Source: a virus. From it: a DNA stretch of 45,336 nucleotides. Where the stretch lies: positions 1 to 45,336 of IMG/VR virus record IMGVR_UViG_3300046659_000007, one strand, 5' to 3'. Within the stretch, counting starts at the first letter, position 1, and each line of letters starts with the position of its first letter. A program made the translations under genes and the position numbers. This document shows, in pieces, positions 2,501 through 45,336 of the stretch. The notes under the pieces were generated by a model. That model worked only from the letters and a program-made list of their open reading frames with translations. It was not told where the DNA came from and did not search any database.

Positions 2501-3814
2501 TCAGACCTTGACTACGCCGATGACTCGCACGCTGTGAATCGCGCCAGACAGCGTGTACTCGTAACGTATGTTCGGCAGAACACGGTTAGCCTTGTCCGTC
2601 GGACTCACCTCTGCGACTTTCGGCGCTGTCACGAACCAGGACTGGTCGCCATCGATGAGGCCGAGCGAGATGCCCTCCTTGACCTGGCCCTCGATCTGCG
2701 CGCGCACTGTCTCAATGCCCTTGTCTGTGTAGGGAACTACATCGTTGTTGCGCAGCAGCAGGATGATGCGATCCTCGATGCCGACATCGAACCAGTCGAC
2801 GGCGACCATCACATCGAGGAACCTGCCGCTCGCTGCCCAGCCGTAGAGCGTGAAGCCAAGGCCCTTGATGTCGACATAGTAGTTCGCTTTTTTCGTGCGC
2901 AGGTTGACCCGTTCCGAGCCGCCGTAGTTCTTGCGCTCGACACCTGTTAGGCCCTTGTTTGCGTACGTGATCGGCCCTGGCAGCTTCGGCATCATCGCGC
3001 CAGTGAGCGCTCCGTCGATGAAGTCTGCAGTGTTTGGATGGTACCAAAGCGAGGTGCGATGGTAGCCGAGGCCGTTGAGCGAGGTCGCGACATCGCCTGT
3101 GCCAGACGCAGGCACATCGCCATCAGAGCTCGAGGCGAGGAAGATCGCGCGCTGCGTCTCTACCCATGCGGCAGCGTTGAGGATCGCAGCCTTGCCAGGC
3201 ACAGCGAGGATGAGGCCATACCAGTCGCCATCAGCGGCGCGAATGCGCGCGAGGTCTGTCGCTGGCGTAGTCGCAGACAACGGTGTTGTGTCTGCGAGCG
3301 CGAGGTTTACCGTCGCACTGGCGATGCGCATGACGCCGCCTGCCGTCGCTGTGAGCGTCACTTTCGTAGAGTCGGACGTTGCAGTTACGCCGATGCCAGC
3401 CGCCGCAGTGACAGCGGCGGCGAGGCCTGTGCAGACCATCGCGACAGTCGGCGTCACTGGCGCAGTGTAAGTTATCAGCACTGCGTTGAGCATGAAGCTG
3501 TAGATCATGCCCTGCACAGGCGCGCTCGGCGTGACTGTCACGACCTGCGTAAACGTGCCTGTGAGCTTGCCGACCTTGAATAGCGGCGGCGATGGATTCT
3601 GACTCTTGAGCTTCGATGCCTCTTGATAGAGCACGCTCGAGCTCGGCACGTTGAATGGCGGCAGCAGCAGCTCATCGGCTGTATTGAAGCTGCGAACATC
3701 CTCGAGCCAGTAAGAGTGATAGGCAGCAATCAGCGGGATGCCGAAGCCGAACTTAGAGACTGTCGCATCCGAGACAGTCACTGTGTGGATAATGACCTCT
3801 GACTCAGCGCCCAT
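2501..3814 (-). CDS. Contractile tail sheath protein
   Basis: 437-aa ORF. The C-terminal region (YYVDIKGLGFTLYGWAASGRFLDVMVAVDWF...) looks sheath-like. Gene order is sheath-tube-chaperone-TMP. Confidence 0.75.
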   Translation of the reverse strand: MGAESEVIIHTVTVSDATVSKFGFGIPLIAAYHSYWLEDVRSFNTADELLLPPFNVPSSSVLYQEASKLKSQNPSPPLFKVGKLTGTFTQVVTVTPSAPVQGMIYSFMLNAVLITYTAPVTPTVAMVCTGLAAAVTAAAGIGVTATSDSTKVTLTATAGGVMRIASATVNLALADTTPLSATTPATDLARIRAADGDWYGLILAVPGKAAILNAAAWVETQRAIFLASSSDGDVPASGTGDVATSLNGLGYHRTSLWYHPNTADFIDGALTGAMMPKLPGPITYANKGLTGVERKNYGGSERVNLRTKKANYYVDIKGLGFTLYGWAASGRFLDVMVAVDWFDVGIEDRIILLLRNNDVVPYTDKGIETVRAQIEGQVKEGISLGLIDGDQSWFVTAPKVAEVSPTDKANRVLPNIRYEYTLSGAIHSVRVIGVVKV

Positions 3815-3816
3815 AG

Positions 3817-4428
3817 TTAGCTCCTATCAATCTGCCTCGGCGGCACTGCAATCACGCTCGGATCGGTGTTGAATGGCGGCCAGACCAGGCCATCGACGAT
3901 CACATGCTCGATGGTGCCGACTGTCTCTGTCGGCGCGCCGTCGTTGCCGCAGCAGCCGCAGTGTGTGTCATACGTGTAGAGGAAACTGAGCTCGAGCGCG
4001 GCCTCGCTCTCGGCTCGAAAGTCAAAGCTGCGACCGAGCTCGACCAGAGGGCCAGGCTCGGCGAGCGAGACGCAGAGCTTGTCGAATGCTGCCTGCGTGC
4101 TCGGCCAGTAGAGCGCATTGCGCAGCCGCTCGAGGTACACATACGCTCGACCATTCGGCGTCTGGTCGCGAGTGAGCACGCGAGTAGTCACTGCGATCGC
4201 TCGGTTGCCTCGCACCTGCACCGTCGCATCGGCGCCGCTGCCGTTGCTGTGCAGCAGCACCTCATCTGGCGAGCCAGTCTGGTCGGCGGCGCCTGCCATC
4301 GACAGGAACGCGCAGGGCCTGCCGAGCATGCCGAGCGGCTCATTGAGCCAGATGACATCCTCGAGCACGATGCGGCAGCGCGCGCTCACGAGCTGGCGCA
4401 TGCCATCGGCGAATGCTTGCCAGTCCAT
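3817..4428 (-). CDS. Neck or tail-terminator-like structural protein (putative)
   Basis: 203-aa ORF between the head-tail joining genes and the sheath. The call rests on position only. Confidence 0.35.
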   Translation of the reverse strand: MDWQAFADGMRQLVSARCRIVLEDVIWLNEPLGMLGRPCAFLSMAGAADQTGSPDEVLLHSNGSGADATVQVRGNRAIAVTTRVLTRDQTPNGRAYVYLERLRNALYWPSTQAAFDKLCVSLAEPGPLVELGRSFDFRAESEAALELSFLYTYDTHCGCCGNDGAPTETVGTIEHVIVDGLVWPPFNTDPSVIAVPPRQIDRS

Positions 4429-14639: not shown

Positions 14640-16109
14640 CTACAGCTCGAGCGACTCGAGCGCCGCCAGATAGTCTGCGGCGCCTCCCTTGAGGTAGTGT
14701 CTAATGGCCTGCGTCTGCGCATCAACGCGATCATTCGCGACACCTCGAGGGAACCGTTTGTGCTCGGTTGCCCAGTCGTGAACCCATGGCGCGAGCGACG
14801 GGTCTGGCAGCCACACGTTGCCAGCGGCGAACACTGGCTGTGTAGCGTAGGCGCGAGCCTCCTTACTGCCGTCTGGCGTGACTGGCAGCACGCCGCTCAC
14901 CTGCTTGCGCAGCATCTCGATCACGGCAGGGCCGTTTGCTTTGTCCTCGACTAGCGTGGTCGTGATCTGCGGCCAGCGCGCGAGCAGCGTGCGCGCCGCA
15001 GCGACAGTGCCGAGAAAGTCGAGGTGCTCGCGTATCTCATCGAGCAGCCAGAAGTGCGGCGGCCTGTAAGCCCACACCTGCGCGGCGACATAGCTCGAGG
15101 TGTCATGCGCCTTGAATGCGCAGTCGAGCGACAGGCACACGAGCTTTCCCTCGAGCGGCGGTCGCACGAGGTAATACTGCTGCAGCCATTCCTGCCGATA
15201 GATGGCGCCGCCCTGCGGCACTGGGTCCTGCTGGTCTTGGGCTGCCCAGCCATCAGGGCCGAACTCCTGCTTACGCCGATCGACCTCGGCGTCTGGCCAG
15301 CGCGCCTCGCAGAGCAGCTCGCCATCGGCCTGCCGAGGATCCTGCCAGCCGATAGGCGTAGGCGCTCGGCGCGCTGCGCTGATGTAACGCATCGGCATCG
15401 CGAGCACTGCATACCCTTGCTCGGCGGCGAGGCCTGCGAGGTCGCGATCGTGCAGGCGTTGCATGATGATGGTGCGTGTGTTGTTGCCAGGCAGCACACG
15501 CGACGCCATCGTTTCAAACCACCACAGCCGAGTGTGCTCGAGCATCGTCGCGCTGTGCGCATCGGTCGGCTTCATCGGATCATCAACGACCTGCCTGTGT
15601 GCGTGAAAGCCAGTCGGCGAGCCGCCGACGCTGATGGCCTGGCGGATGCCGCCTCGATCATTCTCGAGCCAGTCGGCGAGCCAGCGGCCTCGCTTCGGCT
15701 TCCACACCTCGCGATATAGGTCGCGATACCATTCGCTCTCGAATAGCGTGCGGCACTTGAGCGAGTCGCGCACAGCGAGCGCATCGGCATAGGCCCCGTA
15801 TTGCCACTGACAGCCAGGGTTTATCGACCATTCCCACGCTGGCCACATGACGCAGACAGTCGTGCTCTTGCTCGAGCCTGGCGGAACGTTGATGACCAGC
15901 CGCGGCAGCTCGCCTCGGCTCTGGGCCTCGAGGTGCTCGGCGACTGCGCCTATGTGCCAGTTGTCGACATAGGGCGCATTCGGCACGACGATCGGCCATG
16001 CGCTCTTGATGAACTCGTAGAGGTTGCGAGGCGTGCGAGCTCGCCGCTCGACACGCTTGCCTCGCTCTGCGATGAGGGCAGCGAGGCTCGGCTTACGCTG
16101 CACCGCCAC
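14640..16109 (-). CDS. terL: Terminase large subunit
   Basis: 489 aa. Walker-A-like region PPGSSKST, a C-terminal nuclease-like region, and position upstream of the portal. Confidence 0.8.
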   Translation of the reverse strand: MAVQRKPSLAALIAERGKRVERRARTPRNLYEFIKSAWPIVVPNAPYVDNWHIGAVAEHLEAQSRGELPRLVINVPPGSSKSTTVCVMWPAWEWSINPGCQWQYGAYADALAVRDSLKCRTLFESEWYRDLYREVWKPKRGRWLADWLENDRGGIRQAISVGGSPTGFHAHRQVVDDPMKPTDAHSATMLEHTRLWWFETMASRVLPGNNTRTIIMQRLHDRDLAGLAAEQGYAVLAMPMRYISAARRAPTPIGWQDPRQADGELLCEARWPDAEVDRRKQEFGPDGWAAQDQQDPVPQGGAIYRQEWLQQYYLVRPPLEGKLVCLSLDCAFKAHDTSSYVAAQVWAYRPPHFWLLDEIREHLDFLGTVAAARTLLARWPQITTTLVEDKANGPAVIEMLRKQVSGVLPVTPDGSKEARAYATQPVFAAGNVWLPDPSLAPWVHDWATEHKRFPRGVANDRVDAQTQAIRHYLKGGAADYLAALESLEL

Positions 16110-17337
16110 TGCGGCGCTGCGCGCTCTGGCCTGTCAGTGCCTGCCAGCGTTCGATGATCACATCGCAGTAGGCAGGCGCGAGCTCGACTGCAGTGCACAC
16201 TCGGCCGAGCTGCTCGGCGGCGATTAGCGTTGTGCCGCTGCCAGCGTACGGATCGAATACCTCGCCGCTCGTGAACTTGAGGCAGAAGCCGAGCAGCTTG
16301 ACTGGCTTCTGCGTCGGATGCTTGCGCTTCTCGTGCTCGCCAGCGCGGATCATTCCGTTCCACAGCTGGCGATGCACGCGCGCAGGGCCTGTCTGGTTCG
16401 ACCAGGCGAGCTCGCAGTCGGCGAAGCTATTCTCGATGCCGCTATCATCGCGCTTGTCCCACACGAGCCAGCCGCCCTGCGCTGGTAACTGGTCGGCGAA
16501 GTAGTTACCGCCCCACATGATCACGACCTCGCCGCGCTCGAGCAGCCAGCGCACATCCGGCGTGCTGTCATCGCCAGCAATCGGCGCGTACTTGCCTGCT
16601 TTGGCGACGGTGCCGAACTTAGCCGATTGCGCGCCTGCAGCGCCGACACGGCCCTGCTTGGTCACAACCGAGATACCGTAGGGCGGATCGGTAATCACTG
16701 CGCCGAAGCTGCGCACAGGTGTCTGCCTTCCATCGCCGCAGATCAGCGTGTGAGCGCCGAGCTGCCAGACATCGCCGAGCCTGCTCACTGGGTCGACAGG
16801 CACTGGCGGCGCCTCATCCTCCTCGAGCTCGGCCTCTGGCTTATCGCTGCCGCTGAGCTCATCTGCGAGCGCCTCTATATCCTCGCTCGACCAGCCTGCG
16901 AGCTCGGCCTCGGCCAGGTCAAACTTAGACAGCACGCTCGCGAGCGAGTCGCTCCATGTCGCGAGCTCGCCTAGTCGGTTGTCGGCGAGCGCGAGCAGGT
17001 GTGCCTCGCGCTCGCTGATGTCGAGCAGCCGCACTGGCACCTGCGGCAGCTCGAGCGCGAGCGCTGCTTTCCATCTTGTGTGCCCTGCGATGATCTCTCG
17101 GTTGGCTGCGCGCGCAACGATGACAGAGCCGAAGCCGAACCGCTTGATGCTCTCGATCACAGCCTCGACAGGCTCGCCATCGTTGAGCCGAGGGTTATCG
17201 CGCCAAGGCTTGAGCTCCTTCGGCGACAGCCAGACGGCAGGCGATGCAGCCGCCAGCGGCGAGGCCTTGGCGGCGGCGGCCTTGCGCGCTGCTGGCTTAG
17301 TTGCTGCTGCTTGGTTCTGTTTTGCTTTTGGTTTCAT
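16093..17337 (-). CDS. ParB-like nuclease domain / DNA methyltransferase fusion
   Basis: ParB N-terminal-like region (GEPVEAVIESIKRFGFGSVIVARAANREIIAGHTRWKAA). Methyltransferase motifs TDPPYG and DPYAGSGTT. Start chosen at MKPKAK (ATG 17337); the track ORF extends to 17514. Confidence 0.75.
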   Translation of the reverse strand: MKPKAKQNQAAATKPAARKAAAAKASPLAAASPAVWLSPKELKPWRDNPRLNDGEPVEAVIESIKRFGFGSVIVARAANREIIAGHTRWKAALALELPQVPVRLLDISEREAHLLALADNRLGELATWSDSLASVLSKFDLAEAELAGWSSEDIEALADELSGSDKPEAELEEDEAPPVPVDPVSRLGDVWQLGAHTLICGDGRQTPVRSFGAVITDPPYGISVVTKQGRVGAAGAQSAKFGTVAKAGKYAPIAGDDSTPDVRWLLERGEVVIMWGGNYFADQLPAQGGWLVWDKRDDSGIENSFADCELAWSNQTGPARVHRQLWNGMIRAGEHEKRKHPTQKPVKLLGFCLKFTSGEVFDPYAGSGTTLIAAEQLGRVCTAVELAPAYCDVIIERWQALTGQSAQRRSGGAA

Positions 17338-17635
17338 CTGGACTCTGCGCATCTGGCGCGCGCAGCAGGCGCTCGGCTGCGTATCGCTCGGCGACGCCAG
17401 CGACCTCTGACACGAGCTCGGCGAACTGCGCCTGTGTAACTGACAGTCCTTGCGACGCATGCTCGATGATGCGCTCGACAATGAGCCTCGAGGCAGCGTC
17501 GGCTGCCTCCGCATTCTTATCCATGATCGCTAGCGCATAGGCGCGACCAGTGAACACTAGGTGCATTGCGATGCTCAGCGCTGCGGCGACTAGCAGCTCA
17601 TCGCGACGATCGGCCTTGCCTGTCGGTTCGCTCAT
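17297..17635 (-). CDS. Hypothetical protein
   Basis: 112-aa ORF with gene-like composition. Its 3' end overlaps the next gene by about 40 nt. Confidence 0.45.
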   Translation of the reverse strand: MSEPTGKADRRDELLVAAALSIAMHLVFTGRAYALAIMDKNAEAADAASRLIVERIIEHASQGLSVTQAQFAELVSEVAGVAERYAAERLLRAPDAQSPDETKSKTEPSSSN

Positions 17636-26072: not shown

Positions 26073-27212
26073 CTATGGCGGCGCGATGGCGCGCTGCAGC
26101 TCGGCCAGCCTGGTCGGCTGCAGCCTCGGCCTGGTCGGCACGATGAGCGCGAGCATGTACGAGGCTCGATCGCGAGCGGCGATGCGCTCGACTACCTCGG
26201 CAGCAGTGCGCACCTCGGCATGCGCGAGCGTGTAATGCGCAACCGGAAACCCGCTGCGCCCTATCTCATGCGGCCAGCAGTGCTGCTCGATGGCGAATGG
26301 GTCGCGCCATTGATGCCAGGTGATGGCGCCAGTGAGCCAGAGCGCCTGCAGGTAACCGATGTCACCATCGAGCGAGTCGAGGCCGTTGGGATCCCAGTGC
26401 GAGACCGTGCGCAGGCCGATGTGTCTGAGACCGCATTCGCGGCATTCCTGGTAGCCGCCTGGCGGACTGATAATGCGCGCAAGCATGCACTGGCCAGGCC
26501 GCTGCTCGAGGCGCTCGGCCTCGGCGAACACTACCGCCAGCATCGCGAGGCCTCGAGCTCGGCGCGCATCGGACCCGTATCCCTGCAGCGAGCGGCGAGC
26601 CTGGCCATCGTCGCCGATCGCCAGCGCAGCGACCCAGCCGCCGATCGCCAGCGCGCCCTGCTGCTCGCCGATGCGCTCGAGCTCGGCGCGAGCGCGCATG
26701 CCTGTGCCGTCTGCGATCGCCACATGCACACGAGGCGAGAGCTCAGCCTCGAGGCGCGCGAGTCCTACCTTACCAGGCGGCAGCCATTCGATCGGCTCGA
26801 GCGCAGCGACCTCGCGCCGAGCCGCCTCGAGGTCGGCCTGCTCGAGCGGCAGCCAGGCGCCGAGGTCGAGCTGCTCGATGCGCGCGATCGTCGCCGCCCT
26901 GTGCGCATGGCGCGACTCGGCCTGCGCTCGGCGGCGAGCGTGGCGAGCATCGGCGATCGCATCCTCGGCTTCGGCCTGCGCCCTGGCCTGTGCCCTGGCG
27001 CGCTCAAGCTCGACCTGCTCGATGCCCTCGAGCTGGTCGGCGGCGCCTGCCTCGCGCAGCTCGATGGCCAGCCAGCGCGCAGCGGCACCATTCTCGGCTG
27101 CCAGCCGCCGATAGAATGTCGAAACCGAGCGGCCTGCGGCTGCGCTCTGGCGTTCGGACGGCGGCTGATATATATCTTCTGGCAAGTCGTTGCGCTGTCT
27201 AAGGGCGCTCAC
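26073..27212 (-). CDS. Orphan protein with an N-terminal HTH-like segment, a coiled coil and an unknown C-terminal domain
   Basis: 379 aa with a GTG start. RSVSTFYRRLAAENG resembles Hin/resolvase-type HTH helices. The Trp/His-rich C-terminus looks natural. A 447-aa antisense ORF is judged to be a shadow. Confidence 0.6.
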   Translation of the reverse strand: MSALRQRNDLPEDIYQPPSERQSAAAGRSVSTFYRRLAAENGAAARWLAIELREAGAADQLEGIEQVELERARAQARAQAEAEDAIADARHARRRAQAESRHAHRAATIARIEQLDLGAWLPLEQADLEAARREVAALEPIEWLPPGKVGLARLEAELSPRVHVAIADGTGMRARAELERIGEQQGALAIGGWVAALAIGDDGQARRSLQGYGSDARRARGLAMLAVVFAEAERLEQRPGQCMLARIISPPGGYQECRECGLRHIGLRTVSHWDPNGLDSLDGDIGYLQALWLTGAITWHQWRDPFAIEQHCWPHEIGRSGFPVAHYTLAHAEVRTAAEVVERIAARDRASYMLALIVPTRPRLQPTRLAELQRAIAPP

Positions 27213-27221
27213 GATTAGGGT

Positions 27222-27245
27222 TGTCAGTCGACTGGTAATCGACCG
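27222..27245. repeat. 8-bp-periodic array containing the palindrome CAGTCGACTG
   Basis: TGTCAGTC GACTGGTA ATCGACCG, 10 nt upstream of the GTG start at 27212. Confidence 0.6.
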
Positions 27246-27262
27246 GCAATCCGAGGCTTCTC

Positions 27263-27297
27263 GAGCCGCAGCGGGAAACTGCTGCGGCTCTTTTTTT
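27263..27297 (+). terminator. Rho-independent terminator (plus-strand orientation)
   Basis: A 10-bp perfect GC-rich stem GAGCCGCAGC/GCTGCGGCTC (27263-27272 and 27281-27290), an 8-nt loop, then T7 (27291-27297). Confidence 0.7.
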
Positions 27298-27528
27298 CTC
27301 TACGTGCGGCTATCAAGCGCCAGCGGAATCGCTATTGCAAGCGTTTCCAGACTTCGCGCCTCGCTCGAGTGCATTTTGTTCGGCCTGGCTACCCTGCAGG
27401 CGCCGCTCTCAGATGCTCGCAGGCGATCGCGGCGATCCGTCGCCAGCTCTACCGGTTGCCGATCGGCTACTGATATATAGCTAAACGGATACATCGCCGC
27501 TGCGAGCAGCGACATGGAGGTTCGTACG

Positions 27529-27762
27529 ATGAGCTCGACCCAGCCGACCGAGGAGGAACTGCTCGAGGCGCTGCGCATCGCGCTCGAGGATGGCGAGCAG
27601 AGCGGCGTCGCGCCTGGCGACGCGGTTGAAGATGCGCGCGCCCTCCTTGAGGCCATCGAGATTGGCGAGGCCGAGATCGAGCGCGGCGAGGGCATCCCGC
27701 ACGAGCAGGTCATGCGCGACCTCGAGGCGATGCTCGAGCGGCTCAATCGCCAGCGCGGCTGA
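27529..27762 (+). CDS. Acidic helical protein with an antitoxin-like (ParD/RelB-type) C-terminal motif
   Basis: ATG 27529 lies 8 nt after GGAGG. Motifs LLEALRIALEDGEQSG and IEIGEAEIERGEGIPHEQVMRDL. Confidence 0.35.
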   Translation: MSSTQPTEEELLEALRIALEDGEQSGVAPGDAVEDARALLEAIEIGEAEIERGEGIPHEQVMRDLEAMLERLNRQRG

Positions 27763-27882
27763 TATGTTGCGAGCTTGCACAAGCTCTAGTAATGACGCCA
27801 GACGATGACAGACCAGAACCGCAGCGGCACGCACAGCGCGCCCTATACTCGCCGCGATGGCGTGTCGACACGCTCGACAACA

Positions 27883-28011
27883 ATGCACCTCGACATCGAG
27901 GTGCACCGCAAGCTGCGGATCGCAGCGGTCGAGCTCAACACGCACATGAGCACGATCATCGATGCCGCCCTGCGCGACTGGCTGCTCGCCAACCAGCGGC
28001 GGCGGCGCTAA
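27883..28011 (+). CDS. Ribbon-helix-helix (CopG/Arc-like) DNA-binding protein (may start at 27805)
   Basis: MHLDIEVHRKLRIAAVELNTHMSTIIDAALRDWL fits a strand-helix-helix pattern. Confidence 0.5.
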   Translation: MHLDIEVHRKLRIAAVELNTHMSTIIDAALRDWLLANQRRRR

Positions 28012-28301
28012 TGCCGAAAGCTAAGTACGTGCGCCCACCATCGCGCGCTGGCAAAGTCGCGATCAACGTCTATGTGACCGAGCTCGAGCGCATGGCACTC
28101 AAGGTCTATGCCGCAAAGAACAGCACTACGCTCGATGCGCTCATGACCGAGGCGGTTGAGCTCGCGACTAAGGTCCCATTCTCGAGCTACATATCGAAGG
28201 TCAACGCCGAGCGCTTGCGGCAGCTGGCCGAGGCGAGCGGCAAAACTAATGTGCGGCTACTCACAGAGGCGCTTGATCTGCTTTTCAAGGCCTACGAGTG
28301 A
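28011..28301 (+). CDS. Protein with two tandem RHH-like modules
   Basis: Two modules: KVAINVYVTELERMALKVYAAKNSTTLDALMTEAVELA and YISKVNAERLRQLAEASGKTNVRLLTEALDLLFKAY. It has a TAATG overlap with the upstream ORF and a GTGA overlap with the downstream ORF. Confidence 0.45.
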   Translation: MPKAKYVRPPSRAGKVAINVYVTELERMALKVYAAKNSTTLDALMTEAVELATKVPFSSYISKVNAERLRQLAEASGKTNVRLLTEALDLLFKAYE

Positions 28302-28882
28302 CATCGTCTGCGCCGAAGCTGGCCACCTATGCCGACCTGCTCGCGCTGCCAGAGGGCATGCGCGCCGAGCTGGTCGGCGGCCAGGTTGTGATGATGCCCG
28401 CTGTGCTGCCGAGGCACGCTAAGTCTGCAGGTGCGCTGCGCCGATTCGTTGGCGGTCCGTACGATGATGATGATGGCTATGGAGGCCCTGGCGGATGGTG
28501 GATTCTGCCAGAGGTCGATGTGCAGCTCGAGGCGCATGAGGTCGTGCGGCCAGACCTATCTGGCTGGCGGCGCGAGCGGCTGCCAGAGCCAGGTGATGTG
28601 CGGCCGATCTGCGTCGTGCCTGACTGGGTCTGTGAGGTTATCTCGCCGACCAGCGCCAAGCGCGATCGGGTCGACAAGCGCGCGCTATACGCTCGAGCTG
28701 GCGTCGCGCACTACTGGCTGGTCGACCCAGAGGCGCGCACGCTCGAGGCGCTCGAGCTGCGCGCTGGCCGCTGGCTTGAGCTCGGCGCATATACCGATGG
28801 CGACTGCGCGCGCATCGCGCCTTTCGAGCAGGTCGAGCTCGAGGTCGGCAGGCTGTTTATGCCGAGGCCTGCCGACGTCTGA
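28298..28882 (+). CDS. Uma2-family (DUF820) PD-(D/E)xK endonuclease
   Basis: VVRPDLSGW, VCEVISPTS and RVDKRALYARAGVAHYWLVDP match the Uma2 family pattern as I recall it. Confidence 0.7.
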   Translation: MTSSAPKLATYADLLALPEGMRAELVGGQVVMMPAVLPRHAKSAGALRRFVGGPYDDDDGYGGPGGWWILPEVDVQLEAHEVVRPDLSGWRRERLPEPGDVRPICVVPDWVCEVISPTSAKRDRVDKRALYARAGVAHYWLVDPEARTLEALELRAGRWLELGAYTDGDCARIAPFEQVELEVGRLFMPRPADV

Positions 28883-29215
28883 CTACCAGAGCTCGAGCTG
28901 CACCTGCTTGCGCCGAGCTCGAGGCCTCGGCCCCTTGGCGGCTGGCGCAGCCTCGCGCGCTGGCGGCTCGGCGCGCAGCGGCTCATGCGTGCAGCAATAG
29001 TCGATGGTGTCGCCGCCGCCCTGCCCTGGCCGAGGCGGCTGCCGCCTCGTGCATCGCTCGCAGAGGCGCCTCGAGCAGGTGCGGCCTCGGCTGCCGACTG
29101 GATAGTCACAGAGTAGCGACGCTGGCCTGGCGCAGATGTGACACCTCGGCTGCCGTTTAGACCTCGAGCACAGCCACGCCTGGCCCTGCACTGTGAGTAT
29201 TCGTTCGCACGCCAT
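28883..29215 (-). CDS. Cys-rich hypothetical protein
   Basis: 110 aa. CHICARPASLLCDYP...CSRRLCERC...YCCTHE suggests Zn binding. It is convergent with, and abuts, the Uma2 gene. Confidence 0.4.
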   Translation of the reverse strand: MACERILTVQGQAWLCSRSKRQPRCHICARPASLLCDYPVGSRGRTCSRRLCERCTRRQPPRPGQGGGDTIDYCCTHEPLRAEPPAREAAPAAKGPRPRARRKQVQLELW

Positions 29216-29378
29216 AACTGCCCCGTTGCTAAAACCTCAATGATTCCGCTAATGTGCCTTAGTGGAAAAACGGCGCCCCTTCCCTCATCGCAACTCACGT
29301 AAGCGCACGATCGGCCTGAAACACAGGGCGCCGCCGATCGGCCGAGGATCGGCGCTCGCGCGCCTACCCTCACAGCCG

Positions 29379-30368
29379 ATGGTAGACCAGTCGACCAGTC
29401 GACCAGCCGACCAGCGGCCTGCTGCGCTCGACATCGGCCAGGATCTCGAGCGCCTCATACGTAACTATGCGGCATTCGCGAAGCGCGCCAAGGCCGATCG
29501 TACAGTCACAGAGTATGCAGCGCAGTGGCGCAGGTTCGACGCATGGTGCGCAGTGCGCGGCCTGAACTCGCTGCCCTGCCAGCCGCAGACGCTCGCGCTC
29601 TACCTCGCCTCACTGGCCGAGCGCCTCAAGGTCGCATCGATCGCGATGGCCCTCGCTGCCGTCTGCGCCAAGCATCGAACCGCAGGCCATTCCGATCCGC
29701 AGGCAAGCCCGATCATCGGCGAGCTCTGGGCAGGCATCCGCCGCTCGCTCGGCAGCGAGCAGCGCCGAGTCGCGCCGCTGCTCACAGAGGACCTGCATAC
29801 GATCGCGCGCGCGATGCCGCACACGCTGGCAGGCAAGCGCGACAGGGCGCTGCTCGCGCTCGGCCTCGGCGGCGCGATGCGTCGATCCGAGCTGTGCGCG
29901 CTCACTGTCGAGGATGTGAAGTTCCAAGCGAGCGGCGGCCTCGTGCTGCGCATACGCCGCAGCAAAACAGACCAGGAAGGTAAGGCGGCGCGCATCGGCA
30001 TCGCTCGAGGCGGCTCGCGCATGACCTGCCCAGAGCGCAACCTGCGCGCCTGGCTCGAGGCCTCGCGCATCAAGAGCGGACCTCTATTCCGCTCCGTCAA
30101 TGGCGAGCGCATCGGTCGCAGCGCGCTGTCTGGCCGCACCATCGCCAACATCATCAAGCGCGCAGTCGAGGCAGCAGGCCTCGACCCAGAGCTGTATTCT
30201 GGGCACAGCCTGCGCGCAGGCCTCGCGACCAGCGCCGCTCGAGCTGGCAAGGCCGACCGAGCGATCATGCAGCAGGGCCGATGGTCTAACCGAGCGACGG
30301 TGGATCGCTACGTGCGCGACGCCAGACTGCTCGACCGAGACAACGCGAGCGCAGACATCGGCCTATGA
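29379..30368 (+). CDS. Tyrosine recombinase (Cre/Xer-like integrase or resolvase)
   Basis: RDRALLALGLGGAMRRSEL, GHSLRAG and GRWSNRATVDRY supply the R...HxxR...Y catalytic pattern. Start chosen at ATG 29379. Confidence 0.8.
   Translation: MVDQSTSRPADQRPAALDIGQDLERLIRNYAAFAKRAKADRTVTEYAAQWRRFDAWCAVRGLNSLPCQPQTLALYLASLAERLKVASIAMALAAVCAKHRTAGHSDPQASPIIGELWAGIRRSLGSEQRRVAPLLTEDLHTIARAMPHTLAGKRDRALLALGLGGAMRRSELCALTVEDVKFQASGGLVLRIRRSKTDQEGKAARIGIARGGSRMTCPERNLRAWLEASRIKSGPLFRSVNGERIGRSALSGRTIANIIKRAVEAAGLDPELYSGHSLRAGLATSAARAGKADRAIMQQGRWSNRATVDRYVRDARLLDRDNASADIGL
29385..29416. repeat. 8-bp-periodic array, four direct units
   Basis: GACCAGTC GACCAGTC GACCAGCC GACCAGCG, beginning 6 nt after the recombinase ATG. 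Confidence 0.75.
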
Positions 30369-30833
30369 CACACGCTTGGGCCAGCTCACTTGAAGCCGAG
30401 CCATCTCGCAGACGGTTGCGACCAGCCGAGCGAGCATCACTGCATCGAGCTCTGGCGTGCGCTGCGCATCGCCAGCGATCCGCAGGCCGAGGTTAGCAGT
30501 GAGCAGGCCGACCTGGCGCGCCAGGTCGCGATCGGCGACCAGCGCCGCTAGCACATCAGCAAACTGCGGCGCCGATAGCTCGTGCGCGAGCGCCAGACCG
30601 AGCTGCACCATGCCGCCATCCTGCGACGTCGCGACTGGCGCAATCTGCTGCGGCGCCTCGAACTCGGGATGGTCGGCGGCCTCGAGCTCGGCGTGCGCGC
30701 GAGGATCGGCGCTGGCGAGCCGATGCACAAACACGATCACGCTGGCGCCAGAGTCGAGCACGCCATCCCAGCGCCGCACAGGCACGCCATCGAGCTCCAT
30801 CAGAGTGTCCGTTCTTTCCATGGTAATGCGCAC
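30363..30833 (-). CDS. Hypothetical protein
   Basis: 156-aa ORF, convergent with the recombinase and overlapping its 3' end by 6 nt. Confidence 0.45.
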   Translation of the reverse strand: MRITMERTDTLMELDGVPVRRWDGVLDSGASVIVFVHRLASADPRAHAELEAADHPEFEAPQQIAPVATSQDGGMVQLGLALAHELSAPQFADVLAALVADRDLARQVGLLTANLGLRIAGDAQRTPELDAVMLARLVATVCEMARLQVSWPKRVS

Positions 30834-30844
30834 AGGTTCCCTTC

Positions 30845-30876
30845 TGGTCTACCAGTCGACTGGTCACGCTGTAGAC
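30845..30876. repeat. 32-bp box, copy A (contains the palindrome ACCAGTCGACTGGT)
   Basis: TGGTCTACCAGTCGACTGGTCACGCTGTAGAC. It matches 31641-31672 at 26 of 32 positions. It lies in the divergent intergenic region upstream of 30909. Confidence 0.75.
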
Positions 30877-30892
30877 TCCGATTGACAGCTCG

Positions 30893-30901
30893 CGCTATAT
30901 T
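30893..30901 (+). promoter_or_regulatory. CGCTATATT box 7 nt upstream of ATG 30909
   Basis: The spacing implies a leaderless transcript. TTGACA is present at 30882-30887, but only 8 nt before the TATATT core at 30896. Confidence 0.4.
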
Positions 30902-30908
30902 GGAATCG

Positions 30909-31334
30909 ATGTCAACGGAGAATCGACCCGAGCTGCTCGAGCGCTACAAGCTGGCCTACGCCGAGTATCGCGCAGAGGTAGCACTCGGCTGGGATCGGCA
31001 GAAGCTGTTCCTCACCCTGCCATCGACGATCACGGCTCTGACCTCGGCGCTCGCGACGCATCGCCTCGCCGCGCAGGCCGCCCTGCTCTGCGCCGTCCTG
31101 CTGTCTCTGACTGGCATGCTGGTCGTGTGGCGCTCGCATGGCCGCTATCGCGCGACCCGCCAGGCCATGCAGGCGCTCGAGGATCGCCTCGGCATCGAGG
31201 ACCTGCAGACCACTGGCGGCCAGCGCGAGGCTCGAGGCCTGATGCGCCTCGAAGCCTTCCGGATTGTCGATGTGCTGATCGTGGTATTCGCCATCATCGG
31301 CGCGCTCGACCTGGCGCTGCTGGCGCTCTGGTAA
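30909..31334 (+). CDS. Small membrane protein (2-3 predicted TM helices)
   Basis: Hydrophobic segments LFLTLPSTITALTSAL, AALLCAVLLSLTGMLVVW and IVDVLIVVFAIIGALDLALLALW. The ATG lies 7 nt after a TATATT box. Confidence 0.55.
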   Translation: MSTENRPELLERYKLAYAEYRAEVALGWDRQKLFLTLPSTITALTSALATHRLAAQAALLCAVLLSLTGMLVVWRSHGRYRATRQAMQALEDRLGIEDLQTTGGQREARGLMRLEAFRIVDVLIVVFAIIGALDLALLALW

Positions 31335-31346
31335 GGCTCGAGGTCG

Positions 31347-31646
31347 ATGTCAAACCGAGACACATTCGCAGAGTTCGTGCAGCGCGGAGAAATAGCCTGG
31401 AATGGCGAGGGCCAGTGGTGCGGCGATGGCGCCGAGGTCACGCCGAGGCCGCCGCTCGCGCGCCCACATCAGTGCGGCGACAGACCAGAGTGCGGCCTAT
31501 TCGTGTGCAGTCGCTGCCAGCGCGGTGTGCCATGGTGCTTCGGCGGCGAGGGCACGCTCTGCGATGATTGCTGGTCTGAGACTCGGATGCCGAGGCTCGA
31601 GCGCCTGCAGCGGGTCTGGCAGCGGCGGCGCGACTTCGGCTGGTAG
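31347..31646 (+). CDS. Cys-rich hypothetical protein
   Basis: 99 aa. CGD...CGDRPECGLFVCSRCQRGVPWCFGGEGTLCDDCW. Confidence 0.45.
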   Translation: MSNRDTFAEFVQRGEIAWNGEGQWCGDGAEVTPRPPLARPHQCGDRPECGLFVCSRCQRGVPWCFGGEGTLCDDCWSETRMPRLERLQRVWQRRRDFGW

Positions 31647-31755: not shown

Positions 31756-31947
31756 ATGGCACGCAATCGAACCTGGATAGTTATGTGCATCCCAGCGAGG
31801 CGCGACGATGGCGCCTCGAGCTACTTTGCTTACAACACATACACGCAGCGCTCGCGCGCTGCGGCCTCTGCCGCCGATGCGCGAGGCATGTGTCGCGACC
31901 TCAACGCTGGCATCGATCCGAGCGATGTCGCGAGCGTCGTGAGATGA
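31756..31947 (+). CDS. Hypothetical small protein, translationally coupled to the ParA-like gene
   Basis: 63 aa, with an ATGA overlap with the ParA start. Confidence 0.4.
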   Translation: MARNRTWIVMCIPARRDDGASSYFAYNTYTQRSRAAASAADARGMCRDLNAGIDPSDVASVVR

Positions 31948-32633
31948 CCACTATATTCGCCCTAGGCAACCAGAAAGGCGGCGTAGGGCGCTCAACGCTC
32001 GCAGTCTCGCTCGCCGCATACTGGCTCGAGCGAGGCCGCAAGGTCCTGCTGGTCGATGCCGATGAGCAGGCGACTGCGCGCACGTGGGTTGAGGTCGCGC
32101 TCGAGCACGAGCGGCCAGCGCCGACTGTGATCGCAATGGGCGTGTCGATGCATCGGCGCGACCAGCTGCCGCGGCTGGCGCCTGCATACGACATCGTGAT
32201 CATCGATACGCCTGCGAGGCTCGGCGAGGTACAGGGCGCAGCGATGCTGTGCGCAGACGTCGTGATCGTGCCCTGCGGACCAAGCGCGCACGAGTGCTGG
32301 GCAATGGCCGAGAGCGTGCAGCTGGTCGACAAGGCGAGGTCACTGCGGCCAGAGCTCGAGGCCTGCATCGTGATCACGCGCAGGATCGCACGCACGACGC
32401 TGGGTCACGAGGCGCGCGAGGTGCTCGAAAAAACAGGGCTCCCTGTGCTCGATGCCGAGCTCGGCCATCGGGTCGACTACCAGGAGGCTAGCGCCGCAGG
32501 CCGAGGCGTGACCAGCTATGCACCGCAGGGTGAGGCAGCGAGCGAGGTGCGCTCGCTGGCAGCCGAGCTCGAGCTGTTCGCTCGAGGCCGCAAAATCAGA
32601 GCGAGCAAGCGCGCAGCCAAGGAGGCACGATGA
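31944..32633 (+). CDS. parA: Small ParA-type (type Ib-like) partition ATPase with an atypical Walker A (KGGVGRST)
   Basis: FALGNQKGGVGRSTLAVSLA, VLLVDADEQ and DIVIIDTPA. It is 229 aa with no N-terminal HTH. Confidence 0.75.
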   Translation: MTTIFALGNQKGGVGRSTLAVSLAAYWLERGRKVLLVDADEQATARTWVEVALEHERPAPTVIAMGVSMHRRDQLPRLAPAYDIVIIDTPARLGEVQGAAMLCADVVIVPCGPSAHECWAMAESVQLVDKARSLRPELEACIVITRRIARTTLGHEAREVLEKTGLPVLDAELGHRVDYQEASAAGRGVTSYAPQGEAASEVRSLAAELELFARGRKIRASKRAAKEAR

Positions 32634-32920
32634 GCAAGCGAGAGCGGGTCAAGGCGCAGGTGCGCGCACCTCGAGCGATGGAGGCCCTCGTGCGCGCGAC
32701 CAAGCGCGCAGCCAACCAGTCGACCAGTGCATCAGTCGACCAGCCTGCCAGAGGCCGCGGCCTCGTGACTCGGCCATCAGGGCGCGAGCAGGATAAGGTC
32801 ACAGCCTATCTGCCTGTCGAGCTCGGCGGCAGGCTGCGCGCCTACTGCGCGACCGAGCGCATGGAGCTCAGCGTCGCAATGGCCGAGGCGCTCGAGGCTT
32901 ACCTCGCGAGCCAGTCATGA
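32630..32920 (+). CDS. ParG-like RHH centromere-binding protein (putative)
   Basis: 96 aa with a basic disordered N-terminus and a C-terminal RHH-like KVTAYLPVELGGRLRAYCATERMELSVAMAEALEAYL. It forms an ATGA overlap with parA. Confidence 0.55.
   Translation: MSKRERVKAQVRAPRAMEALVRATKRAANQSTSASVDQPARGRGLVTRPSGREQDKVTAYLPVELGGRLRAYCATERMELSVAMAEALEAYLASQS
32714..32745. repeat. 8-bp-periodic array, four units, inside the ParG-like coding sequence
   Basis: AACCAGTC GACCAGTG CATCAGTC GACCAGCC. It encodes NQSTSASVDQP. Confidence 0.6.
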
Positions 32921-33339
32921 GCGCAGGCAAGTGCAAGGCCTGCGGCTGCACCATCGAGCGAATGAACGCGAGCAGCATCGACAGGCAGCTCGCCTCGATG
33001 CTTGAGCAGATGCCAGAGATCGTCGATCGGCCTGGCGAGAGTTTCGACAGTTGGCAGCGGCGACAGTCCGACAACGATCGCAAGGTCGCAATCACTGCAC
33101 GTGTGCGCATCGGCATCCTGCGCGATGAGATCGCAGGCTACTGCCTCGACTGCGCGCCGACGAATCGCCAGATCGAACGCGAGCGCGCGCAGCGCAAGGA
33201 GCAGGGTGCGCGCCTCGCCATCGAGGCCGCCGACCGAGGCGAGGATCGCGACCTCGAGGCGCAGCTGCAGTCGCGACTGCGAGACACGAGGCGCGACCTC
33301 GAGGCGATGCGCGACAGGCTCAAGCCGAAGCCTGCCTAG
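32917..33339 (+). CDS. Zn-ribbon plus coiled-coil hypothetical protein
   Basis: CKACGC ... CLDC, then a charged helical tail. It forms an ATGA overlap with the upstream gene. Confidence 0.45.
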   Translation: MSAGKCKACGCTIERMNASSIDRQLASMLEQMPEIVDRPGESFDSWQRRQSDNDRKVAITARVRIGILRDEIAGYCLDCAPTNRQIERERAQRKEQGARLAIEAADRGEDRDLEAQLQSRLRDTRRDLEAMRDRLKPKPA

Positions 33340-44752: not shown

Positions 44753-45307
44753 CTAGCCAGTCCTCCTCACAGCCTCGGCAGTGCGGCGACGCTCGAGGTC
44801 GATCGCTGCCTTGGCTGCGCGTGCAGCATCGGCAGCGCCGACACCTGCGCCGATGTTGACTGTCACAGGGCCGTTGTTGACTGTGTTCGATGGCGCCGCT
44901 GGCGCGCCGCTGCCAGCAGGTGCCGCAGGCACTGGCAGACTCGCGACGCCGAACTGCTGCGTCCCTGCGCCTACGCCTCGACCAGATGCGTACTTCCGTT
45001 TCGCGATCTCATCGGCGATGGCCTTGCGCTTGGCTTCGGCGTCGCGCACCTGCGCATCGAGCTCGGCCGCTCGAGCGGCGCGCTCCTGCTCTGGCGTCAT
45101 GACGCCAGCGCCGAGGCCTCGGCCAGCCGCGCGCCCTGCCGCAGGCGCCTGCTTGTCTTTGACGTCGAAGCCGAGCAGCCGACCGAATGCGGCGCCGAGA
45201 TTCTCGATCTTAGTGACCAGGCCCTGTACCCATTCTCCGACCTCTGCCAGCTTGTCGGCGACTGCAGCGCCGAAGTTCATCGCCGCGCCAGTGACCAGGT
45301 CCCACAT
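44753..45307 (-). CDS. Tail tape measure protein, C-terminal part (joins 1382..1; total about 644 aa)
   Basis: The frame is continuous with 1382..1 once the 31-bp overlap is removed (1382 + 553 nt = 645 codons including stop). The sequence is Gly/Ala-rich. It sits upstream of the baseplate genes. Confidence 0.8.
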   Translation of the reverse strand: MWDLVTGAAMNFGAAVADKLAEVGEWVQGLVTKIENLGAAFGRLLGFDVKDKQAPAAGRAAGRGLGAGVMTPEQERAARAAELDAQVRDAEAKRKAIADEIAKRKYASGRGVGAGTQQFGVASLPVPAAPAGSGAPAAPSNTVNNGPVTVNIGAGVGAADAARAAKAAIDLERRRTAEAVRRTG

Positions 45308-45336
45308 GCCAGCGAGCGAGGGCAGCTCCTTCCATG
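45306..45336. repeat. Terminal 31-bp direct repeat, copy 2 (circular-assembly overlap)
   Basis: Identical to bases 1-31. It lies inside a coding sequence. Confidence 0.9.

Follow-up and report, generated by a model that had tools for sequence, protein, structure and literature searches.

Do the four small genes at positions 27529-28882 of a viral genome, IMG/VR record IMGVR_UViG_3300046659_000007, form a toxin-antitoxin (TA), addiction or abortive-infection (Abi) system around a nuclease, or were they brought together in another way? The stretch analysed, referred to as the window, comprises positions 1-45,336 of that record (45,336 nt). A preliminary description had proposed that the block is an undescribed system of this type, built on the Uma2 (DUF820) protein encoded by its last gene and with DNA-binding antitoxins encoded upstream. 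The open reading frames (ORFs) are:

27529-27762, + strand: ORF1, an acidic protein of 77 amino acids (aa), with a GGAGG Shine-Dalgarno sequence at 27517-27521, 7 nt upstream
27805-28011, + strand: ORF2, 68 aa, a single ribbon-helix-helix (RHH) protein
28011-28301, + strand: ORF3, 96 aa, two RHH modules in a single chain
28298-28882, + strand: Uma2, 194 aa, with a GTG start codon overlapping the stop codon of ORF3

The earlier interpretation is partly supported. That the block is an undescribed TA, addiction or Abi system built on Uma2 is mostly not borne out: close homologues of the nuclease are solitary at all 80 genomic loci inspected, and where an RHH gene is linked to Uma2 in related phages it encodes the partner of a ParA protein. 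We lean towards the view that the block is a mosaic accessory operon for maintenance or regulation, situated in the lysogeny/maintenance module of a phage, and that Uma2 is captured cargo in it. The components are new members of known families, namely Uma2/PDC-S03, the PF20605/ParG-like RHH proteins, the Arc-like RHH proteins and a ParD fragment, in a lineage-specific mosaic. In such an operon a promoter within 27213-27528 would drive expression of ORF1-ORF2-ORF3-Uma2 in the lysogen, and the ORF2 and ORF3 proteins would bind DNA and autoregulate their own and perhaps other maintenance promoters, like omega, ParG or Arc-type RHH proteins. Uma2 would be a passenger, a metal-dependent nuclease co-expressed with the regulators, for which exclusion of or defence against incoming DNA, in line with the PDC-S03 candidate class, would be the most plausible role. 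The main value of the analysis lies in the evidence for autonomy of Uma2 and in a few phages whose Uma2 genes have partition-type iterons on both sides.

The layout of the block was described correctly and a renewed reading of the sequence agrees with it: the four ORFs are co-directional, ORF2 and ORF3 are joined at TAATG (28009-28013), ORF3 and Uma2 overlap by 4 nt at GTGA (28298-28301), and the promoter-like sequence GATATATAGC is found at 27472-27481. GC content by codon position is of the coding type in all four ORFs (0.74-0.87 at third positions, GC3; 0.41-0.50 at second positions, GC2), with GC3 values of 0.87 for ORF1, 0.86 for ORF2 and 0.74 for ORF3, and antisense and alternative frames score worse by the same measure. 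The JGI gene calls give identical ORF2 and ORF3, and the GTG start of Uma2 aligns with the N-termini of 23 homologues. Of the tight coupling, which had been taken to indicate a unit, the overlaps themselves stand, but their special significance does not: because 1- or 4-nt overlaps are found in 15 of the 48 co-directional gene pairs of this genome, they are its packing norm and no special mark of a functional unit.

The Uma2 nuclease and its homologues

The window Uma2 protein matches PF05685 with an E-value of 3.3e-26 (92.2 bits against a cutoff of 27), residues 13-182 covering profile positions 3-170 of 172. In an alignment of 24 subfamily sequences (the window protein and 23 homologues) no variation is seen at the residues E72, D74, D86 (of RPD), E113, S116, D123 and K127, all of which the window protein has, and the RPDL, EVIS and D-x3-KR motifs are invariant or near-invariant. 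The family assignment with intact motifs is confirmed in this way, and the protein, which keeps an intact PD-(D/E)xK core, is a predicted nuclease. The related PDB entries 6okh, 9y1l and 3ot2 are all labelled 'uncharacterized' or 'putative'. All 24 aligned members contain an invariant acidic/glycine loop, G-P-x-x-DDDG-x-GGPGGWW (nt 28454-28501, Uma2 residues 53-68), which is missing from 6okh and which the alignment marks as a subfamily-specific insertion.

The nuclease also falls in a class that is already catalogued. PADLOC lists PDC-S03 as one of 145 untested 'phage defence candidates' and defines it as a single-gene system; according to the PADLOC source paper, the PDC systems were found by their embedding in BREX, DISARM or restriction-modification (RM) loci. 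The window protein matches two PDC-S03 hidden Markov models (PDLC04833, 1.6e-20 over residues 1-187; PDLC04832, 1.1e-18). Unlike PDC-S03, however, it is phage-encoded, embedded in an operon instead of free-standing, and has no BREX, DISARM or RM context. PDC-S03 is not mentioned in the literature searched. Uma2/DUF820 is among the largest nuclease families for which our literature and structure searches found no function, and a consistent partner would be a valuable lead.

Such a partner was not found among the cellular homologues. The homologue search returned 3452 sequences with a dense cloud at about 70% identity, from which 80 genomic loci of the ~70%-identical subfamily were fetched, mostly from metagenome-assembled genomes of Polyangia and with several genomes represented twice. 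The subfamily is widespread in Polyangia genomes and often occurs in multiple copies. Relatives of ORF1, ORF2 or ORF3 are absent within 4 kb of Uma2 at all 80 loci, and no small RHH-like ORF lies upstream of Uma2 there, the upstream genes varying in size and orientation. The four further close metagenomic homologues P0009, P0015, P0018 and P0069 likewise have no RHH neighbour (0 of 4).

The upstream sequences point in the same direction. A TANNNT hexamer begins 12-15 nt upstream of the Uma2 start codon in 47 of 78 loci, as compared to 0-2 at any other position, and in most chromosomal copies a -10-like box sits 6-9 nt before the start codon; in the aligned upstream sequences of the chromosomal genes no Shine-Dalgarno sequence is evident. 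Because the box lies so near the start codon and a Shine-Dalgarno sequence is lacking, this arrangement suggests that chromosomal Uma2 is a leaderless-type, autonomous transcription unit. Judged from these loci, genes of the subfamily are normally stand-alone, autonomous single-gene units. Autonomy without an RHH partner fits a stand-alone defence or selfish-nuclease role better than the role of a toxin.

Two other explanations for the distribution of Uma2 were considered and rejected. A small mobile element with conserved flanks would carry shared sequence around the gene, but no shared k-mers were found in the 150 nt on either side of 77-81 Uma2 loci. A conserved ParA-RHH-Uma2 triad beyond the phage group is contradicted by the three plasmid contexts inspected (one from Bdellovibrio, two from Leptospirillum), none of which has an adjacent ParA or RHH gene. 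A tblastn search of 50,697 GenBank phage records gave no Uma2, and a close-relative search of IMG/VR with the window Uma2 returned only the window's own protein or nothing.

The RHH proteins and the antitoxin-like fragment

The 96-aa ORF3 protein had been described as an unusual pseudo-dimer of two RHH modules. Two modules are indeed present: PF20605 (Antitox_RHH, 5e-12) matches in two stretches and the halves align in register with 28% identity, a type B module being encoded at about nt 28035-28172 and a type C module at about nt 28173-28298. Intramolecular pairing is thought less likely, since the linker between the modules is only ~2 residues long, as compared to 12-60 in homologous tandem RHH proteins. 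The modules probably pair between two chains, which would give a dimer with two DNA-reading heads. An AlphaFold2 model of ORF3 is of too low confidence (pLDDT 73, pTM 0.38) to decide how the modules pair; it has four helices at the expected positions and no beta-ribbon was called. Foldseek gave no match to this model at E<0.5; AvtR, ParG and single-chain Arc top the list, none of them significant.

AvtR of Acidianus filamentous virus 6 (PDB 4hv0) binds DNA as a monomer and autoregulates its expression (PMC5569661). ORF3 resembles it in having two RHH motifs in one short viral polypeptide, but there is no detectable sequence relationship, the AvtR motifs are separated by a linker, and the ORF3 model, with no strands called, does not support an AvtR-like intramolecular pseudo-dimer. 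A further single-chain tandem RHH regulator is TraY of the F plasmid.

Closer relatives of both ORF3 modules are found among partition proteins. ParG/omega-type RHH proteins bind the centromere in type Ib partition systems, such as ParF-ParG of TP228 and delta-omega of pSM19035. Residues 9-50 of ORF3 (the B module) are 71% identical to ParG′ of the sister phage L089 and 59% identical to ParG′ of L094; ParG′ is a 101-aa PF20605 protein with a long N-terminal tail and a type-B RHH, and its gene overlaps that of ParA′. Residues 55-95 (the C module) are 56% identical to a ParA-adjacent protein of 92 aa in L082, the gene of which overlaps the end of the ParA gene. Both modules are homologous, then, to the C-terminal RHH of proteins whose genes overlap small ParA genes. 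Unlike these ParG proteins, ORF3 has two RHH modules instead of one, only ~13 residues before the first strand as compared to ~50 in ParG′, no detected iterons and no ParA in front: the gene upstream is ORF2, and the nearest ParA gene, at 31944, has its own partner in a separate complete ParA-ParG pair (31944-32920). By these alignments ORF3 is a chimera of two RHH DNA-binding modules, each with relatives that form the C-terminal domain of a ParG-type partner of a small ParA ATPase, and the N-terminal ParA-interacting tail has been lost.

ORF2 matches the PHROG family of Arc-like repressors (7.7e-6) and, below the Pfam cutoff, RH3_dom (1.5e-5). Over 55 aa it is 51% identical to the N-terminal half of P0124, a remote relative of ORF3, including a conserved N-terminal arm. 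It is classified here as an Arc/CopG-like single RHH and predicted DNA-binding protein (type A).

Among 5.8 billion proteins no close homologues of ORF2 or ORF3 were found, the searches returning only the window's own proteins or nothing. The same outcome was obtained in IMG/VR with the alignment of the ORF3 N-terminal half (type B), with the neighbouring 379-aa protein and with ParA′, and a single-protein scan of IMG/VR with ORF3 gave one weak locus, L081. The metagenome candidate L083 lies inside a housekeeping gene and was discarded as a false positive. With ORF3 as query, a sensitive search yielded 13 remote relatives in which at least four types of RHH module are shuffled: type A as in ORF2, type B as in the N-terminal half of ORF3 (PPSRxGKV...), type C as in its C-terminal half (VPFSSY...SGKxRVRLL) and type D as in the ParG-like protein of the window. 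P0124 is an A-C fusion (41% identical to ORF3), P0123 is C-C and P0130 is B-D; in several other relatives a conserved N-terminal peptide and a Pro/Ala linker are combined with a single B module. The P0124 gene lies directly 3′ of parA-parG in L103.

The idea that these RHH proteins are antitoxins for Uma2 finds little in its favour here. The tandem-RHH genes P0124, P0123 and P0126, all three that could be placed, are each followed by a convergent gene and by no co-directional toxin gene. Both ORF2 and ORF3 stop at the last RHH helix and have no C-terminal tail for toxin binding. By homology, partition proteins and regulators, rather than known antitoxins, appear to be the kin of the two proteins.

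The first gene of the block was rightly recognised as antitoxin-like and devoid of a DNA-binding strand. ORF1 gives weak ParD/RelB matches (E about 0.03), the ParD-profile match covering residues 8-28 and profile positions 43-63 only, with scores below the Pfam and NCBIfam cutoffs (PF03693, 15.3 bits against 21; TIGR02606, 14.5 against 46.2). Its residues 27-77 (51 residues) are 43% identical to the C-terminal half of an RHH antitoxin in the sister phage L084. This antitoxin, a protein of 87 aa with an N-terminal RHH, is encoded next to the par genes, and its gene overlaps by 4 nt that of a 92-aa ParE/RelE-type toxin. ORF1, unlike a ParD-ParE system, has no RHH DNA-binding domain, and no ParE or RelE was found anywhere in the window genome. 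Because both the RHH part and ParE are lacking, ORF1 is best described as an orphan: of a ParD-like antitoxin it has only the C-terminal half, which is predicted to be of the toxin-binding type. The fragment may be a remnant, or it may act as an 'anti-addiction' factor that neutralises ParE toxins of competing sister elements; the sister phages allow a test of whether the orphan fragment counters ParE of such rivals.

Linkage of RHH and Uma2 genes in sister phages

The neighbourhood check had been suggested as a test of an association between Uma2 and RHH genes. Negative for the 80 genomic loci and the four further homologues, it was positive in two sister phage lineages, L089/L090 and L094, which contain the close Uma2 relatives P0005 (72% identity) and P0004 (71%). 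The window shares a protease (42%) and a scaffold protein (56%) with L089, and an AAA_24 protein (58%) with L094. The gene order is parA′-parG′-Uma2 in L094 and parA′-parG′-cbiA2-Uma2b-Uma2 in L089, so that in the latter the RHH gene and the matching Uma2 gene are two genes apart. In L089, positions 1692-2998 encode a second CbiA/ParA-type ATPase and then a divergent Uma2 paralogue of 228 aa; since the paralogue directly precedes the 189-aa Uma2, the nuclease of L089 is a tandem pair. The block has 8-bp iterons, (C/T)CA(C/T)CATG, in both lineages. They stand in groups of two to four in the intergenic gaps that precede parA′, separate parG′ from Uma2 and follow Uma2:

L094, intergenic gaps: iterons at 360-390, 1987-2001, 2971-2985 and 3579-3593
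L089, intergenic gaps: iterons at 603-640, 1641-1655, 3576-3590 and 3918-3943

The iterons that bracket Uma2 are likely candidate binding sites for ParG′. Their density is 1.7-2.9 per kb in the sister phages as compared to 0.22 per kb, a background value, in the window, and their presence in the window was rejected for this reason. The intergenic regions of the window yielded no other tandem iterons.

The RHH-Uma2 linkage appears best explained if, within one phage lineage, a partition operon carries Uma2 as cargo at its 3′ end. Unrelated small genes, and no Uma2, follow a par′ cassette of more distant kinship (L109/L110), and the sister phage L088 has unrelated small ORFs in the equivalent slot, which is thus variable among the sister phages. 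The window would have lost parA′ and the tail of ParG′, and what was left of ParG′, its RHH, would have become joined to a C module. These uncultured myxobacterial phages form a group with plasmid-type partition cassettes, shuffled RHH modules and Uma2 as recurrent cargo amid iterons, and the control of Uma2 expression could readily be tested in the sister phages.

Several observations weigh against Uma2 being mere cargo of a mosaic operon. By homology, a type-B RHH is linked to Uma2 in the window and in two more phage lineages, L089/L090 and L094, and RHH and Uma2 are each ~71% identical between these lineages, against 42-58% for the shared structural proteins. Together with the iterons that flank Uma2 in the sister phages, the linkage may reflect a specific tie in regulation or function. 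The window copy of Uma2 has no -10-like box and is packed behind ORF3; because its own box has been lost and it overlaps ORF3, its expression is predicted to depend on the RHH operon. The regulatory part of the proposal is weakened, as the analysis identified no operator for ORF2 or ORF3 and no copy of the sister-phage iteron is present at 27-29 kb of the window. The literature searched assigns no function to Uma2.

Some of these points could be accommodated by a regulatory coupling without neutralisation, in which the ParG′-derived type-B RHH would repress transcription of Uma2 and the nuclease output would be tied to copy number or presence of the phage-plasmid, resulting in a partition-coupled exclusion or addiction device. 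A precedent is pSM19035, where omega controls the epsilon-zeta operon and parA (delta); omega, an RHH regulator, is encoded immediately before a toxin-antitoxin pair and regulates this pair without being the antitoxin. The co-conservation of the type-B RHH and Uma2, the location of the iterons in L089 and L094 and the absence of an autonomous -10 box from the phage copies of Uma2 would all fit. Yet the iterons are at background density in the window, one of the three par′ lineages is without Uma2, the chromosomal Uma2 copies need no such control, and the binding of the iterons by ParG′ is itself a prediction. We consider this coupling unlikely, although it fares best among the alternatives.

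A type II-like TA, addiction or Abi module, with Uma2 as toxin that is neutralised through direct binding by ORF3, ORF2 or ORF1 and an operon that is autoregulated by them, is slightly harder to maintain. As in type II TA systems, RHH genes precede the nuclease gene, and ORF3 and Uma2 are adjacent, co-oriented and overlapping in a tightly packed block; ORF1 has a C-terminal segment of the antitoxin type, L084 has a canonical TA pair adjoining its par genes, and the RHH-B/Uma2 linkage recurs in sister phages. The term 'TA-associated' has been used for DUF820 in Synechocystis (PMC4963859). The pairing, however, is not conserved as in type II systems, being seen only in the two sister lineages, where the RHH protein is the ParA partner and where in L089 two genes intervene; the partnerless homologues mostly have their own promoter-like -10 box, and a free-standing toxin in multiple copies per genome would not be tolerated. 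No protein of the block combines a DNA-binding domain with a toxin-binding extension (ORF2 and ORF3 have nothing beyond the RHH fold, ORF1 has no DNA-binding domain), the ORF3-type proteins elsewhere have no toxin downstream, and the homologue of ORF1 partners ParE, not Uma2.

About equally doubtful is a functional ParG-type RHH-Uma2 pair tied to the partition locus, in which the RHH protein would bind the iterons and repress the nuclease gene, or would directly restrain the nuclease. If so, Uma2 would be unleashed when the element is lost or diluted, or when an arriving competitor titrates the RHH protein, giving a partition-coupled addiction or exclusion device and a first biological role for a Uma2 protein.

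Least probable is that ORF1 and ORF3 no longer function and are what the deletion of ParDE and par′ cassettes left behind, with Uma2 and perhaps ORF2 still functional: this would account for the missing DNA-binding domain and toxin of ORF1, for the ParA-interacting tail, ParA gene, iterons and normal inter-module linker that ORF3 lacks and for the scarcity of close homologues of ORF2 and ORF3, but the frames are intact with strongly coding GC3 values, ORF1 has a canonical Shine-Dalgarno sequence, and packaging-size pressure purges dead DNA from phage genomes.

Flanking regions and genomic setting

The captured-cargo reading places the operon in a module with the following flanking features:

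27213-27528, no strand assigned: divergent intergenic region upstream of ORF1, with a palindrome, a hairpin followed by a T-run and an AT-rich box
28883-29215, - strand: convergent Cys-rich ORF of 110 aa, which abuts the Uma2 stop codon and closes the unit
29262-30368, + strand: tyrosine recombinase/integrase (PF00589, 7.6e-17), 49-68% identical to the integrases of the sister phages L084, L086 and L088
31944-32920, + strand: the partition cassette of this genome itself, in which the gene of a small ParA (31944-32633) overlaps that of a 96-aa ParG-like protein (32630-32920)

In the intergenic region, the AT-rich box CTGATATATAGC spans 27470-27481 and includes GATATATAGC. Because a consensus scan of 27000-29500 found no sigma-70-like promoter, the promoter-like nature of GATATATAGC is putative only. 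A perfect hairpin with a 12-bp stem and GAAA loop, followed by TTTTTTT, lies at 27263-27297 (+) between the 379-aa gene (-) and ORF1. It resembles a terminator on the + strand, yet no gene on the + strand ends there; the only terminator-like site found by the scan is located upstream of ORF1.

The palindrome CAGTCGACTG at 27225-27234 occurs five times in the genome (12355, 27225, 30853, 31649 and 41672; 10 nt each, mostly CCAGTCGACTGG), against 0.1 copies expected, and none of 100 shuffled sequences reached five. Three of them lie between genes, one ahead of the ORF1 operon, one ahead of parA and one in the baseplate region. In the sister phage L086, CCAGTnnGACTGG is found at 1072 and 10055, which are equivalent positions, and a third time at 3561, downstream of parG. 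The palindrome is likely a candidate operator or methylation site. The genome has exactly two copies of the sequence CTGATATATA, at a distance of 305 nt from each other, at 27165-27174 within the 5′ end of the divergent 379-aa gene and at 27470-27479, 50 nt upstream of ORF1; with at least two copies in 6 of 100 shuffles, its significance is marginal. The 379-aa gene itself (26073-27212, -) is inverted relative to a 50%-identical homologue in L088 (4969-6138, +), the flanking genes keeping their orientation.

On the other side of the block, the 110-aa ORF is a putative gene (GC2 0.65, GC3 0.78). It is one of two small Cys-rich ORFs with zinc-ribbon-like CxxC pairs that flank the integrase/partition module, the other lying at 31347-31646 (+); neither has a family match.

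The preliminary description placed the block on a temperate phage next to maintenance genes, and this was right, because the module holds an integrase and a ParA/ParG-like pair. The true start of ParA is at about 31944, and its partner has a C-terminal RHH (type D). By sequence the two are assigned to the type Ib ParA/ParG-like pairs; they are 57-68% (ParA) and 44-55% (ParG) identical to those of L084, L086 and L088. L084/L087, an IMG/VR contig of a sister phage, has 49% identity to the window in integrase, 57% in ParA, 44% in ParG and 41% in protease.

Since the contig has a 31-nt exact direct repeat at its ends (1-31 and 45306-45336) and no host flanks, it is probably a complete circular genome of ~45.3 kb. 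It encodes a tail sheath, baseplate, portal, large terminase, major head protein and protease, and the phage is regarded as myovirus-like and temperate. The ParA/ParG-like genes, the tyrosine recombinase and the absence of host flanks possibly indicate a phage-plasmid lifestyle. Relatives of the phage proteins and of Uma2 derive from Polyangia (Myxococcota) assemblies, which suggests a host in this group. Megablast of 20-33 kb of the window against GenBank phages gave no match, an exact-sequence look-up of the window's own proteins gave no record, and neither Rfam families nor tRNAs were found.

Three further genes were recorded. A ParB-like nuclease/partition domain is fused to a DNA methyltransferase at 16093-17514 (-), adjoining the large terminase gene. 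A member of the 8xMP octameric-membrane-protein family (4.9e-9) is encoded at 30582-31334 (+), between the integrase gene and parA. The 140-aa gene at 32917-33339 (+), 3′ of parG, gives a weak match to PbeC in PADLOC (4.8e-4).

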